Assembly: GCA_964356375.1 (NCBI GenBank)
Contig: CAYHGT010000001.1
Span: forward strand, 9,221 to 73,220
Direction: 5' to 3'
Length of the DNA stretch: 64,000 nucleotides
Source: an uncultured Candidatus Saccharibacteria bacterium
GTDB taxonomy: Bacteria; Patescibacteriota; Minisyncoccia; UBA6257; GWB1-50-10
In this document: positions 1,602-51,644 of the stretch, piece after piece
How positions within the stretch are numbered: position 1 is the first letter of the stretch
Layout of the letters: every line of letters starts with the position of its first letter
Notes under the pieces: generated by a model
What the model was told of the DNA's origin: nothing
Databases searched by the model: none
What the model saw: the letters and a program-made list of their open reading frames with translations, nothing else
Translations under genes and position numbers: made by a program

Positions 1602-1988
1602 ATGGCAGACATGAAAAAACTATTGATAGTGGAAGATGAGCCGTTGCTTGCGAATCTTTTAAAACAGCGCTTTGAAAAGGAGGGTATAGAGGTAATTTTG
1701 GCGCGTGATGGCGAGGAGGCATTGAATTTTCTTCGCACTACTAGACCAGATCTCATTTTGCTGGATATTATTTTGCCGAAAATCTCCGGCTTTGAACTTT
1801 TAGAAACCATGTCCGCAGACCCGAATATTGAAAAGGCGCCAGTCATTATAACCTCAAACCTCGGTCAGGATTCGGATGTAAAGCGCGGACAGTCGCTTGG
1901 CGTGGTTGAGTACTTTGTAAAGGCAAAAATCTCAATAGAGGATCTTGTGGAACACGTGAAAAACGTGTTAGAGGGTAATAAGGTTTAG
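1602..1988 (+). CDS. Stand-alone response-regulator receiver (CheY-like) domain protein
   Basis: 128 aa. LLIVEDEPLL...DLILLDIILPKISGFELL: acidic pocket, phospho-acceptor Asp context and a conserved Lys region typical of REC domains. There is no output domain. Confidence 0.75.
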   Translation: MADMKKLLIVEDEPLLANLLKQRFEKEGIEVILARDGEEALNFLRTTRPDLILLDIILPKISGFELLETMSADPNIEKAPVIITSNLGQDSDVKRGQSLGVVEYFVKAKISIEDLVEHVKNVLEGNKV

Positions 1989-2006
1989 GGTTCAATTATC
2001 CACATG

Positions 2007-2062
2007 TACGGTATACGGTATACGGTATACGGTATACGGTATATGGTATACTGTATACAGTA
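2007..2062. repeat. Tandem heptanucleotide repeat (TACGGTA)x5 followed by three degenerate units (TATGGTA, TACTGTA, TACAGTA), 52 bp upstream of the major pilin start
   Basis: Counted directly: eight contiguous 7-bp units at 2007-2062. The unit contains the palindrome GTATAC. Confidence 0.9.
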
Positions 2063-2113
2063 TTTCATTATAGGAATGAAAGGTCGGTAATAATAGAAAA
2101 AGAAATATTAAAT

Positions 2114-2715: not shown

Positions 2716-2745
2716 CCCCCCCCGTTTCGAGGGGGATTTTTTTAT
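2716..2745 (+). terminator. Rho-independent terminator after the major pilin
   Basis: CCCCCCCGTTTCGAGGGGG hairpin followed by TTTTTTT. Confidence 0.75.
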
Positions 2746-4680: not shown

Positions 4681-4736
4681 TGTATGCTAAAATTTATATG
4701 CATGAGTAATCGCAAAAAAATTTTAATACATTCAGC

Positions 4737-5970: not shown

Positions 5971-6382
5971 TTGAACATTATGAAGATAGAACGATTTGAA
6001 GAATTACCAATTTGGAAAGATGCGCGAATCATTTCTTCGGAAGTATATAAAAAAACAAGGTCATTTAAGGATTTTTCGTTGCGAGATCAGATGAGGAGAG
6101 CAGCCGTTTCCATTGTTTCAAACATTGCCGAAGGGTTTGAGCGTTGGTCAAATAAAGAATTTATTCAATTTCTCTATATTGCGAAAGGATCGGTCGGTGA
6201 ATTGCGTGCGCAATTGTATGTTGCATATGACGCTGAAATTTTTAAGTAACGAGCACTTGATTGCGATGATTAAGCAATGCGAAGAGATTTCGGGTGGAAT
6301 AAGTAAATTTGCTAATTATTTGAGAAAATCACCGATTATCAAGGAAAGATATAATACAAAAGCAAGCTTATTGAACAATTGA
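5971..6382 (+). pseudogene. Four-helix-bundle protein (23S rRNA intervening-sequence-protein family) interrupted by a 1-nt frameshift in a T5 run
   Basis: ORF 5971-6249 (...IAEGFERWSNKEFIQFLYIAKGSVGELRAQLYVAYDAEIFK*) continues in the +1 frame (LSNEHLIAMIKQCEEISGGISKFANYLRKS...). Removing one T from the T5 run at 6239-6243 gives a continuous protein of about 136 aa with family-typical motifs. Confidence 0.5.
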
Positions 6383-6403: not shown

Positions 6404-7531
6404 ATGAAAAAGAAATTATTCAATCCTTCAATTATTCAATCCTTCAATTTTCGGGGTGGTTTTACAATGCTTGAGCTTGTGATTGTGATAGCGATTACGG
6501 CAGTTCTTTCAACGGTAGGTTTTGTATCGCTTAGCGGGTATCGTGGAAAACAAAATCTTAATAAAACAATGGATGAGTTAGTTGCTGTAATTGTTGGTAC
6601 GCAAAAGCGCTCAATTTCACAGGACACGGGGAAACAATGGAACATAAGATTTTCAAATACCGCGAGCTCTGGAAGCCAATACATAATTTTTTCCGGCTCG
6701 GCATACAGCACGAGTTCAATAGATAGAATATATGGACTTGGACGCGGTGTGCAATTTGCAGAGCCATATTTAAATAGTGCATTTGATGCATTTTTTACGC
6801 CGATAACAGGAACACTCCCTTCAAAGAAAATCATCTCGCTCGTTACAGGTAAAAAAGACGGTCTGGTTGGCGATATTATTTTAAATACCGCGGGTCGCGT
6901 AATTACGCGACTTGAAAGCGGTCTTGTCGGATATTGGCATTTTGATGAAAATGCATCTTCAACGGCACACGATTCGGCGGGTATGGATAATGATGCAATT
7001 CTTTCCGATGGACCTGTGTGGAAGGAGCATAAAAATTGCAGAGAAGGAAATTGCCTAAGCTTTAAGGGCGGAAGCGACCAGGCGGCTACCGCGTCCATAG
7101 ATATCAACGGCAAGCCGGATTTTACAATCAGTGATTGGCAATATATCACAAGCTTATCCTCGGGTAGCTGGGTATTGAATTATACATTTGGAGAAACCTC
7201 ATTTTACTCATATCACGGCGGACAGTTTAGAGTTGTGGACGGGCCATTGGAGTGCCAAGATTCCGGATTCGGCTCAATATCTTCCAGCGAATATCTTAAT
7301 AAGTGGACACACACAGTGTTTGTAAAAACTGGCGATGTTATAAATGTATATGTTAATGGAGTGTTTCGCGCGTTCTGTGTTTCCAAAAACGGAGTGCTGG
7401 CTAATCCGATATTTAAAATAGGAAATATTTTTGTAGGAAGAAACATGATAGGCATTGTTGATGAGGTCCGTATCTACAACCGCGCCCTTTCTGCGACCGA
7501 GATTTTGAATATGTATAATGACTTTAAGTAA
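6404..7531 (+). CDS. Type IV pilin-like protein with a C-terminal LamG/concanavalin-A-like lectin domain (paralog 1)
   Basis: Prepilin signal MKKKLFNPSIIQSFNFRGG|FTMLELVIVIAI. C-terminal LVGYWHFDE...CREGNC...DEVRIYNRALSATEILNMY matches Laminin_G_3-type motifs. Confidence 0.8.
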   Translation: MKKKLFNPSIIQSFNFRGGFTMLELVIVIAITAVLSTVGFVSLSGYRGKQNLNKTMDELVAVIVGTQKRSISQDTGKQWNIRFSNTASSGSQYIIFSGSAYSTSSIDRIYGLGRGVQFAEPYLNSAFDAFFTPITGTLPSKKIISLVTGKKDGLVGDIILNTAGRVITRLESGLVGYWHFDENASSTAHDSAGMDNDAILSDGPVWKEHKNCREGNCLSFKGGSDQAATASIDINGKPDFTISDWQYITSLSSGSWVLNYTFGETSFYSYHGGQFRVVDGPLECQDSGFGSISSSEYLNKWTHTVFVKTGDVINVYVNGVFRAFCVSKNGVLANPIFKIGNIFVGRNMIGIVDEVRIYNRALSATEILNMYNDFK

Positions 7532-7544
7532 GTTATTGAAAATT

Positions 7545-8693
7545 ATGAAAAAGAAATTATTCAATCCTTCAATTATTCAATCCTTCAATTTTCGGGGTGG
7601 TTTTACAATGCTTGAGCTTGTGATTGTGATTGCTATCATGGCTGTTCTTTCTACGGTCGGATTTGTATCGCTTAGCGGGTTTCGTGGTAAACAAAATCTT
7701 AAGAAAACCACGGACGAACTGGTGGCGGCAATCGTGGGAACGCAGAAACGCTCAATCTCACAAGATGCGGGAAGTAGGTGGAATGTACGCTTTTCAAATA
7801 CCACAAGTTCAGGAAGTCAATATATTGTGTTTTCGGGTACGAGTTATGCGACAAGCGCGATTGATAAAATATACGGCCTGAATCGCAATATTCAGTTTTC
7901 AGAACCATATTCCGGCAGTACATCTAATGCGTTTTTTGCTCCATTTACGGGCACGCTCCCCTCAAAAAAAATAATTTCAATGGTAACAGGTCGGCAGGAC
8001 GGATTTGTGGGGGACATTATTATGAATACAGCGGGGCTCGTGACTGGGCGCAATGAGAGTGGTCTTGTGGGATATTGGCATTTGGATGAAAACACATCCA
8101 CAACTGCGTATGACGCGTCTGGTATGGGGAATACTGGCGCTCTTGTGGGCACTTCTACGTGGCAGACGGGAATGAGTTGCGTATCAGGAAGTTGCTTGAG
8201 TTTTAATGGAAGTGGACAATATATAGATTCCGGGGCGAATTCCATTTTGGGTACTAAGCCTTTTACACTCACTGTGTGGATTAATACAAACAGTGTCGCG
8301 GGTTATAGTGGAGCAGTTTCAATTGGAACATCTGCGAGTGGTCAATCAGCATATATCGGAACCGTTGCGGTTGCACAGGTTGGCACGAGCAACTCTATTG
8401 GTGGTGGCTTCTATGGCGCAAATTATGGTTCGGGTATTACCACCACAGGTCAATGGGTTCACGTTGCCATGACATTTGCGGGCGGGTCAAATGGGGCTGC
8501 GATAATTTATGTAAATGGGCAAGTTCTTGTAAATACTACATACACACCGAATTTAGGAAGCGCGGTGAAAAGAATTGGCAGAATCGGGACCGACTCTACG
8601 TACGACTTTAACGGTTCAATTGATGAAGCTCGCATTTACAACCGCGCGCTTTCCGCGACTGAGATTTTGAATATGTATAATGACCTCAAATAA
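7545..8693 (+). CDS. Type IV pilin-like protein with a C-terminal LamG-like domain (paralog 2, tandem duplicate)
   Basis: The track ORF starts at 7518, but the in-frame ATG at 7545 reproduces the identical leader MKKKLFNPSIIQSFNFRGGFTMLELVIVIAI. The 93 bp 7539-7631 are identical to 6397-6489. C-terminus LVGYWHLDE...CVSGSC...DEARIYNRALSATEILNMY. Confidence 0.8.
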   Translation: MKKKLFNPSIIQSFNFRGGFTMLELVIVIAIMAVLSTVGFVSLSGFRGKQNLKKTTDELVAAIVGTQKRSISQDAGSRWNVRFSNTTSSGSQYIVFSGTSYATSAIDKIYGLNRNIQFSEPYSGSTSNAFFAPFTGTLPSKKIISMVTGRQDGFVGDIIMNTAGLVTGRNESGLVGYWHLDENTSTTAYDASGMGNTGALVGTSTWQTGMSCVSGSCLSFNGSGQYIDSGANSILGTKPFTLTVWINTNSVAGYSGAVSIGTSASGQSAYIGTVAVAQVGTSNSIGGGFYGANYGSGITTTGQWVHVAMTFAGGSNGAAIIYVNGQVLVNTTYTPNLGSAVKRIGRIGTDSTYDFNGSIDEARIYNRALSATEILNMYNDLK

Positions 8694-10168: not shown

Positions 10169-10278
10169 TAACCAGCGACTAACGACAAACAACTAGAAAC
10201 GGACGGACCTTTTTCCATTTTTTTCCTGTCGTGGGTTGTTAGTTGTGAGTTGTAGGTTGTGAGTTATAATAAAAGCAT

Positions 10279-10719
10279 ATGGTTGAAGTAAAGAATTTCA
10301 GTGAATCGCTTGATACTCATTTGGAGCGCCTAGGTGCACATATTAACGTAGAACGCGAAAGGCCAAGTTCCGAGCTTTCATCTCCGCGCGAGATTGTAAA
10401 AAACTCACTCAAAAATTATGCAGAAGACCTTACTCAGATTCGGAACGTGAGCGTGGCTGAGGCACAGGCTGGTCTTGTGTCGCAAGCAACGCCAGCGTCC
10501 GATATGTCTGGGTCCTTGCCAAACTACCTTTTTAACAGCGACATTTCTGAGGGTATTAAGCAGGAGGTAAAAGAGCTTGTGGATTTTGTATTTTCAGACA
10601 ATCTTGAATCCGCAATAAAAGAGTCGCGCAAACGTTCTGCGTTCGTGCAGGACGCATTTCACGATGCGCTGGTTGATAAGTTGATGCCAGAACTCGTAAA
10701 ACGAGGAATTTTCAAATAA
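10279..10719 (+). CDS. Hypothetical protein (146 aa), upstream partner of the large ATPase
   Basis: Intact ORF with good coding periodicity and no recognisable motif. It is separated from the next gene by 8 bp. Confidence 0.45.
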   Translation: MVEVKNFSESLDTHLERLGAHINVERERPSSELSSPREIVKNSLKNYAEDLTQIRNVSVAEAQAGLVSQATPASDMSGSLPNYLFNSDISEGIKQEVKELVDFVFSDNLESAIKESRKRSAFVQDAFHDALVDKLMPELVKRGIFK

Positions 10720-50912: not shown

Positions 50913-50993
50913 CACTCAATATATCCGAGCTCCACACCAATGGGGCTCTTTTATTACAACGATGTGCACAAATCTTGTGCTACAATATGAATA

Positions 50994-51644
50994 ATGGAGT
51001 TTATTAAGAAAGTACTTTGGGCGGGAATTACTATCGCAATTATTTATTTCGGTTATCTTGCGTACATTAATTGGTGGAGTGCTGGTGGTTCGTTTGACCA
51101 AAAAAAACAAGCGGCGGAACAGTATGTCGCGCAAAAAAAAGACGAGGTAGCGAAACAAGTAGGTGCAAAAGCACAAGAATATACGGGTGTGGTAGTTCAG
51201 CAAGCAAAAACCGGCGTACTTGATTATGTAAAGCAAAAAATCTCGGACGGGCTCGCAAATGTGGGCGAGGGTCTTATTCATTCGGCGGAGTCATTGCTCG
51301 GCGCAAGTTCAACCGAAATTTTGCGTCCCGTGACCGTAGCGACTGTTGCGGGGAATAATGCGGGTAGTGTATCCAAGCCCACGGGTTCGGGATTCATAAC
51401 ACCCGCACCGCCCGCAACCATTACGACTAAGGTGGGTGCGCCAATTATATTCTCAATAAATCGTGGCACCACGTATTCAATTGATTGGGGAGATAAGACG
51501 AGCGACAAGGGGAGTGTGGATGTTGAATCGGTAAAGCTTGTAAGTCATGCGTGGGCGAACGGAGGCGACTTCAGTATAAAAATATCTGTGCGAGGCGGTG
51601 GCGTATCACAGGATTACACATTCCCAATTCGCGTATACCCATAA
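50994..51644 (+). CDS. Hypothetical secreted/membrane-anchored protein
   Basis: N-terminal TM/signal (VLWAGITIAIIYFGYLAYINWW); no family motif recognised. Confidence 0.5.
   Translation: MEFIKKVLWAGITIAIIYFGYLAYINWWSAGGSFDQKKQAAEQYVAQKKDEVAKQVGAKAQEYTGVVVQQAKTGVLDYVKQKISDGLANVGEGLIHSAESLLGASSTEILRPVTVATVAGNNAGSVSKPTGSGFITPAPPATITTKVGAPIIFSINRGTTYSIDWGDKTSDKGSVDVESVKLVSHAWANGGDFSIKISVRGGGVSQDYTFPIRVYP

Follow-up and report, generated by a model that had tools for sequence, protein, structure and literature searches.

A tract of eight tandem 7-bp units lies directly before a type IV pilin gene in an uncultivated groundwater bacterium of the Patescibacteria/Paceibacterota, from the Hainich well H52, and the sequence comparison identifies it as a lineage-specific, slippage-born promoter microsatellite. 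Judged by its position among conserved elements, the tract probably constitutes the core promoter of the pilin gene, with its perfect units forming the spacer between a conserved upstream box, TTATCCACA, and the -10. This arrangement could act as a repeat-length switch on pilin expression, in which an extended -10 core is combined with a spacer of variable length to TTATCCACA; we hold this proposal tentatively, as just short of an even call. For attachment to their partners and for the uptake of DNA, these tiny and host-dependent bacteria are thought to rely chiefly on type IV pili, and regulation in Patescibacteria is largely obscure, with few transcription factors and no growth alone. A switching role, if true, would offer these bacteria a cheap and heritable diversity of piliation, either on/off or high/low; if the tract is static, it would represent just a recent microsatellite in a tolerant promoter.

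The repeat tract and the pilin locus

The 56 bases of the tract (window positions 2007-2062, the window being the whole 64-kb stretch of DNA that was analysed) are made up of five copies of TACGGTA followed by TATGGTA, TACTGTA and TACAGTA. Tandem Repeats Finder reports a period-7 repeat at 2007-2063, with 8.1 copies, 92% matches and the consensus TACGGTA, and the eight-unit tract of five perfect copies and three variants that had been described originally is confirmed by this program as well as by direct reading. A two-unit probe with up to two mismatches gave 12 overlapping matches in the 64-kb window, all of them within the tract, against 0.13 expected from shuffles, and the TACGGTA tract is a single locus there. 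It starts 18 nt past the stop codon of a response-regulator gene and ends before the pilin ATG, as predicted, with 51 nt in between (last base 2062, ATG at 2114). The features of the locus are collected in Table 1.

Table 1. Features of the pilin promoter region, in window coordinates, and TACGGTA arrays in other pilus loci, in the coordinates of the locus named.
Feature	Position	Strand	Basis or remark
Receiver-only (CheY-like) response-regulator gene	1602..1988	+	PF00072, E = 1.5e-23; without output domain
Conserved upstream box TTATCCACA, candidate protein-binding site	1996..2004	+	Identical to consensus DnaA box
Five perfect TACGGTA units, lineage-specific expansion (putative variable-length spacer)	2007..2041	+	Tandem Repeats Finder, probe, box distance in relatives
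Three variant units TATGGTA, TACTGTA, TACAGTA	2042..2062	+	Candidate extended -10; probable start-site region
Candidate extended -10, TATG-g-TATACT = TATGGTATACT	2042..2052 (hexamer 2047-2052)	+	TRTGNTANAMT match
Alternative candidate -10, TG-TATACA	2052-2059	+	MAFFT pairs the relatives' GTGTATACT with CTGTATACA, 2051-2059
Conserved block AATGAAAGGTCGG	2075..2087	+	Identical in L012, L014-16, L176-181
Type IV pilin gene, 190 aa	2114..2686	+	PF07963 N_methyl (prepilin N-terminal methylation), E = 2e-9
Canonical intrinsic terminator after pilin gene	2716..2745	+	G+C-rich stem, then T run
TACGGTA array, pilus locus L030	1577-1597
TACGGTA array, pilus locus L034	3497-3517
TACGGTA array, pilus locus L038	576-596
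TACGGTA array, pilus locus L045	3758-3778
TACGGTA array, pilus locus L068	5082-5102

The tract sits in a spacer of 125 nt, with the response-regulator gene upstream and the prepilin gene downstream. Relatives always have a regulator gene of 85-93% identity directly upstream of the pilin gene. Leaving identical copies aside, the pilin is 82% identical to the closest of its 3122 homologues, most of which come from Patescibacteria/Paceibacterota. The gene that would be controlled belongs to a surface structure, since the type IV pilin gene is followed on its 3' side by pilB, pilC, a 23S-IVP gene and then minor pilins with LamG domains. The label of major pilin that had been given to the gene is a reasonable one, in view of the PF07963 match and the pilB, pilC and minor pilin genes that follow, and falls short of proof. 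The gene between pilC and the minor pilin genes (window 5971-6249) encodes a four-helix bundle of the 23S rRNA-intervening-sequence type, and a gene of this type takes the same place in a Wolfebacteria genome (L038, 620-991).

Some variation of the pilin itself can be seen among relatives. Two tandem major-pilin paralogues stand between the regulator gene and pilB in L013, L017, L020 and L176, and the window has one (2114-2806). Across lineages the pilin is 65-82% identical versus 85-93% for the regulator, a difference that would agree with a diversifying pressure acting on the pilin. In a Jorgensenbacteria relative, represented by L180, L181 and four siblings of these contigs, several independent contigs, each about 11.1 kb long, stop no more than 50 nt into the pilin coding sequence, and the contigs L176-179 carry one and the same regulator gene with different pilin genes downstream. 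Together, these contig ends and differing pilins suggest a strain-level replacement of the pilin that breaks assemblies.

The hexamer GTATAC is a palindrome, as had been pointed out, and six copies of it recur in the tract at a regular spacing of 7 bp; units 7 and 8 even form a perfect 14-bp palindrome, TACTGTATACAGTA, at 2049-2062. Both features would suit an array of binding sites at which a protein, for example a repressor that coats the promoter, recognises GTATAC or the heptamer. However, the genes nearby offer no candidate for a DNA-binding protein, the product of the neighbouring regulator gene being receiver-only, while GTATAC is neither avoided nor clustered at the other promoters of the window (12 other sites) and the relatives keep a single copy of it, inside the -10. 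We regard such binding sites as highly improbable. A reading of GTATAC as a restriction site was rejected, given that the 12 sites outside the tract compare with about 6 expected and the motif is hence not avoided.

The tract could also act through nucleic-acid structure, either as a long and imperfect hairpin, which would terminate or insulate transcripts coming in from the response-regulator gene, or as a cruciform. The RNA of the 125-nt spacer folds at -34.9 kcal/mol versus a shuffle mean of -20.1 (z = -5.4), and a terminator scan gives a stem of 13 pairs at 2025-2058 behind a response-regulator gene that is without any other terminator. This stem is nevertheless A+T-rich, carries a G-G mismatch in each unit and ends in the tail AGTATTTCAT instead of a T run, whereas real terminators of the genome, such as that at 2716-2745, combine a G+C-rich stem with a T run, and it has no counterpart at this place in relatives. 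An intrinsic (Rho-independent) terminator was rejected for the A+T-rich, mismatched stem, for its tail and for its absence from relatives. As DNA the fold is weak (-13.1 kcal/mol, z = -2.5), and the cruciform and iterated-site ideas of the original prediction, possible as they are, received nothing specific in their favour. In Rfam, positions 1400-2800 gave sub-threshold microRNA-hairpin and ylbH matches only, and no known RNA family. On balance, a role through structure appears improbable.

The promoter and its orthologues

Orthologous loci were reached through homologues of the pilin and of the regulator, and the promoter was aligned with nine orthologous promoters using MAFFT. The order of regulator and then pilin is constant across the orthologous loci, and the repeat is absent from all the orthologous regulator-pilin spacers examined, which are 20 to 113 nt long. 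The tract is therefore no conserved regulatory device, as no relative has a repeat at its pilin promoter. A common layout is shared by four lineages (L012, L014-16, L165-171 and L176-181) amid otherwise diverged sequence. It consists of the TTATCCACA box, 23 nt, a -10 of the form (R)TG-TATA(A/C)T, a further 6-7 nt and the block AATGAAAGGTCGG; L165-171 have no exact copy of this final block. Between the box and AATGAAAGG lie 70 nt in the window (2005-2074), compared with 35-36 nt in L012, L014-16 and L176-181, and the excess of 35 nt equals five units, which is the number of perfect units. The spacers of the relatives hold GTAT-rich proto-repeats, such as ACGTATGTGTATTGGTGTATAC in L012, which makes the tract look like the product of slippage that set out from the GTATAC(T) of the -10 region.

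The TTATCCACA box, just past the stop codon of the response-regulator gene, is the sole perfect copy in the 64-kb window. It is kept in L012, L013-16, L165-171, L173-175 and L176-181, at least five diverged lineages, despite the diverged spacer that flanks it, and in four lineages it stands 23 nt upstream of the pilin -10. A replication origin, or a cluster of DnaA boxes, was considered at this place and rejected: there is only one perfect box, boxes with one mismatch are no more frequent than by chance (21 versus 15 expected), the cumulative GC skew climbs monotonically over the window, and the neighbouring genes are those of the response regulator and the pilin. Conservation of a single copy in a region that is no origin suggests that DnaA or another protein regulates the pilin promoter. 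The block AATGAAAGGTCGG starts, in relatives, 6-7 nt past the -10, where the transcript would be expected to begin. The same block can be read as a possible leaderless mini-ORF (ATG AAA GGT CGG), which gives MKGR-stop here and 8-11 codons in relatives. The comparison as a whole provides a first footprint of a Patescibacteria pilin promoter, in which an extended -10 is framed by a conserved site resembling a DnaA box and by a conserved block at the expected start of the transcript.

By this comparison the tract fills the interval from the TTATCCACA box to the conserved transcript-start block, and it holds the best -10 of the region. The three variant units had been described as single-substitution variants of the repeat, which they are; they do not represent decay, as they carry this -10, TATGgTATACT, at 2042-2052. 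The TRTG arises from a C-to-T substitution in unit 6, and TATACT owes its last base to a G-to-T substitution in unit 7; neither feature is present in a perfect unit. The motif TRTGNTANAMT occurs 6 times in the window versus 1.8 expected, a number reached by 0 of 100 shuffles, and its matches on the + strand precede the pilin gene, pilB, pilC and a gene at 50994. The clearest promoters have the form TRTGnTAnAAT and comprise TGTGCTAAAAT before pilB (2766-2776), TATGCTAAAAT before pilC (4683-4693) and TGTGCTACAAT before the gene at 50994 (50976-50986); this set gives a first view of promoter form in the source organism. No -35-like hexamer is present 16-18 nt upstream of 2047, and the relatives have no conserved -35 either, which fits a promoter of the extended -10 type. 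The working -10 would lie in the 3' variant units under either choice of hexamer, the candidate TATACT or the alternative favoured by the alignment (Table 1); the start would be expected at about 2059-2060 with TATACT and at about 2066 with TATACA.

The placement of the tract needs a corresponding correction. It had been located at or just upstream of the -35 region, and if the start is near 2059 this roughly holds for the perfect units, which would then span about -53 to -18. It does not hold for the tract as a whole, which the alignment shows to extend from the -35 position through the -10. The prediction of a promoter-associated simple-sequence repeat adjoining the pilin gene is borne out, and an altered number of units would be expected to alter the geometry of this promoter.

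Two further period-7 tracts of the window, imperfect and G/T-rich, were observed at other promoters. One (1553-1590) reads GTTGTCA GTTGTAG GTCGTTA GTTAGTT and runs into the TGC-TATACT of the response-regulator gene, and the other (10231-10270) reads GTGGGTT GTTAGTT GTGAGTT GTAGGTT GTGAGTT and runs into a TATAAT before an ORF that starts at 10279. Both have a complementary C/A-rich arm 40-60 nt upstream, at 1500-1512 and at about 10173-10190, respectively.

Unit number and the proposed switch

In the proposed mechanism, the sequence that now forms the pilin promoter would have arisen from its -10 region, which provided the seed for a slipped-strand expansion of the 7-bp unit GTATACN. The 3' variant units would supply the extended -10, which is -35-independent, with a start expected near 2059, and the five perfect units would serve as a spacer of changeable length between the core promoter and TTATCCACA. 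Replication slippage would gain or lose units without altering the core promoter, given that an extended -10 leaves the core the same whatever the number of perfect units. Each unit would shift TTATCCACA by 7 bp, about 240 degrees round the helix. The box, in turn, would bind an activator or a repressor, for which DnaA is the obvious candidate, and the box-dependent share of pilin transcription would rise or fall in heritable, reversible steps, provided that units are gained and lost often enough to be useful and that expression responds to their number. The distance from the box to TATACT is 42 nt here versus 23 nt in relatives; as the difference between the two is no whole multiple of the unit, this simple picture of a spacer is approximate.

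The number of units was followed in contigs found by exact-protein look-ups of the pilin and the regulator in ENA and Logan assemblies. Seven loci from six assemblies span the tract (L001/L007, L002/L008, L004, L005, L006 and L011), and each has exactly eight units and an identical 125 nt. Since the identical tract comes from different assemblers, it is no assembly artefact. Three Logan contigs stop short of spanning it: L009 and L010 end with a G and 30 nt of perfect repeat, and L003 begins with 30 nt of perfect repeat and a T, so that their ends are the exact two borders of the 37-nt perfect run. The Logan assemblies of L002 and L004, in comparison, run through the tract. Logan is built from Cuttlefish2 unitigs at k=31, for which k+1-mers are recorded and k-mers seen once are dropped, followed by Minia3 (PMC12424806). 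An edge-centric graph at k=31 was simulated for alleles that differ in the number of perfect units. With the observed allele alone, the simulation gave one unbroken unitig; the contig ends were reproduced only when an allele of 4, 6 or 7 perfect units was added, or with at least six perfect units alone. Read through this model, the contig ends may be taken as a hint, and an indirect one, of length heterogeneity in ERR3858112 and ERR3654040. They could also stem from a different organism of the sample that carries a TACGGTA run of 31 nt or more, or from an undocumented detail of the pipeline. A scan of the JGI metagenome collection with a 28-mer of the 3' boundary of the tract gave no match and no copy of the locus. 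When the response-regulator alignment was used as a metagenome query, generic regulators of at most 50% identity dominated, and a known JGI orthologue was missed. The phase variation originally put forward is not seen directly in these contigs, with eight units in every one that spans the tract and the k=31 contig ends as the sole, indirect hint of heterogeneity.

The main rival to a switch is a fixed and essentially neutral microsatellite, which arose by one or a few slippage events, has a count that is now stable and does no switching; it would be tolerated because an extended -10 needs no -35. The constant eight units of the spanning contigs agree with this, as does the absence of the tract from every relative. 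Interruptions, such as those in the three 3' units, stabilise arrays. Period-7 arrays are, moreover, the commonest short-period repeats in the sampled sequence, at about one per 40 kb, as counted over the window and the fetched loci (roughly 400 kb, or about 300 kb without duplicate copies of the pilin locus). Heptanucleotide repeats are cited as the most abundant class of 5-11 nt in many genomes (PMC4679880). With five perfect units against about 13-24 in proven switches such as hmw1A, the rate of slippage may be low. On the other side, five identical units with zero substitutions imply a recent or ongoing process, and a strongly conserved box displaced by 35 nt is unlikely to be without effect on expression. 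A second allele is suggested by the contigs that break off exactly where the perfect run begins or ends, and TACGGTA recurs at other pilus genes. A static microsatellite is a serious possibility, about which we are somewhat doubtful.

Heptamers at other loci and in known systems

The array (TACGGTA)3 was found in 59 stretches of a species-representative genome collection, versus roughly 0.3 by chance as estimated from the size of the collection. Some genomes outside the Patescibacteria have many such arrays, and 17 of the arrays are in Patescibacteria, at 16 loci, one of which has two. The Patescibacteria arrays are mostly 10-70 nt before start codons, among them those of aspS, pyk, mraZ, carB and ftsX. 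A TACGGTA array is also present in L044 (Hainich H52-bin063_1), which has no similarity to the window and a higher G+C content and probably belongs to a different organism.

In pilus loci, TACGGTA is present in three to four copies in Saccharibacteria, Wolfebacteria and Paceibacterota (Table 1). The array lies inside the leader-coding sequence of a prepilin in L030, with N_methyl at residues 21-44, and likewise in L038, where the leader reads MNSGTQFARGIRYTVYGIRS|FTVVE. Pilin genes of L045 have heptamers related to TACGGTA in their leaders, the array of L034 is near pilin-like genes, and that of L068 is 13 nt before a gene for a TraG/VirD4-like ATPase. A second, roughly complementary heptamer array of the GTATTCA type was noted upstream in L030 and L034, and the two could pair round the start codon. 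The occurrence of TACGGTA at several pilus loci may raise the prior for a link between the repeat and pilus genes in Patescibacteria. A 7-bp unit inside a cleaved leader would shift the reading frame with each unit gained or lost, and would in this way be a switch. Patescibacteria may conceivably use heptanucleotide repeats, in promoters or in prepilin leaders, as contingency loci for the pilus, a generalisation that we consider unlikely on the present sequences; if true, phase variation based on repeats would be described for the first time in the Patescibacteria radiation, for which no publication on the subject was found.

A repeat of another kind was observed in the leaders of both tandem LamG minor-pilin genes of the window. 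At 6414-6449 and 7555-7590, a 16-bp direct repeat, AATTATTCAATCCTTC, is present in 2.2 copies with a sub-period of 8 bp, in the part that encodes the leader MKKKLFNPSIIQSFNFRG|GFT. The length of its unit is not a multiple of three, so that a change of one unit would shift the frame. A shorter, 354-aa database form (P0241) seemed to be a frameshifted variant; the leader in its contig, L182, proved to be identical, the difference being one of start call only.

The heptamers may alternatively form a general class of direct repeats near gene starts in Patescibacteria, similar to the STRR repeats of cyanobacteria or the TAACTGA repeats of Beggiatoaceae, with a role that is independent of length and acts possibly at the RNA level or through protein binding. 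The excess of (TACGGTA)3 and its 17 Patescibacteria arrays, mostly before start codons or inside prepilin leader-coding segments, favour such a class, as do the two further imperfect tracts of the window that end at -10 boxes. However, TACGGTA occurs at one locus of the window only, and is not dispersed as are TAACTGA or the repeats of STRR genomes; a start near 2059 would place the perfect units outside the pilin mRNA, and the tract is missing from the orthologous promoters. We find membership of such a class very doubtful.

Several known systems can be compared with the tract. In Haemophilus influenzae hif (TA repeats), Bordetella fim and the Neisseria poly-C/G tracts, repeats lie between the -35 and the -10. 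As in the present case, the repeat is inside the core promoter of a fimbrial or pilin gene. Those repeats change a spacer of 16-18 bp by 1-2 bp, whereas a 7-bp step cannot fine-tune the distance between -35 and -10, and the present pilin promoter is apparently -35-independent. The TAACTGA repeats of Beggiatoaceae, Cyanobacteria and Bacteroidetes, considered together with the long simple-sequence repeats of prokaryotes, are likewise intergenic 7-nt direct repeats near gene starts, and close strains differ in them by indels in 7-nt steps (PMC4679880). They form tens to hundreds of sets per genome, mostly a few nucleotides from the start codon. The window, in contrast, has a single locus of this kind, which overlaps a -10 and is separated from the ATG by 51 nt; in the 64-kb window, neither the dispersal of an STRR or TAACTGA family nor an overlap with the ribosome-binding site was found. 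The GAA repeats of Mycoplasma gallisepticum vlhA also form a tract before a surface-protein gene, about 40 nt upstream of its promoter (PMC6258824), and they differ in the trinucleotide unit, the large gene family and a dependence on number that was shown experimentally.

A heptanucleotide parallel is that with Haemophilus influenzae hmw1A/hmw2A, where a surface adhesin gene has tandem 7-bp units, (ATCTTTC)n, in its promoter region and the ends of the repeat share bases with promoter hexamers (PMC8262952). The number of units in hmw1A sets the level of transcript, and proven heptanucleotide switches have about 13-24 units (PMC8262952). Two promoters flank the hmw tract, which is part of the transcript from P2, has 13-24 or more units and is of proven variability. 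The present unit, unlike these, is TACGGTA and not ATCTTTC, there are eight units (five of them perfect) and not more than 12, no second promoter is evident upstream, and the tract is probably upstream of the start site. The likeness to hmw1A/hmw2A is, by analogy, one of mechanism only. In Neisseria meningitidis nadA, a tract upstream of the core promoter (TAAA) sets the distance and phase of distal protein-binding sites relative to it (PMC2791445); its tetranucleotide unit, a known binding protein, NadR, and switching shown experimentally are features in which it differs from the pilin tract. The proposal made here for TTATCCACA follows the logic of nadA, namely an upstream repeat that sets the position of a distal site relative to the promoter.
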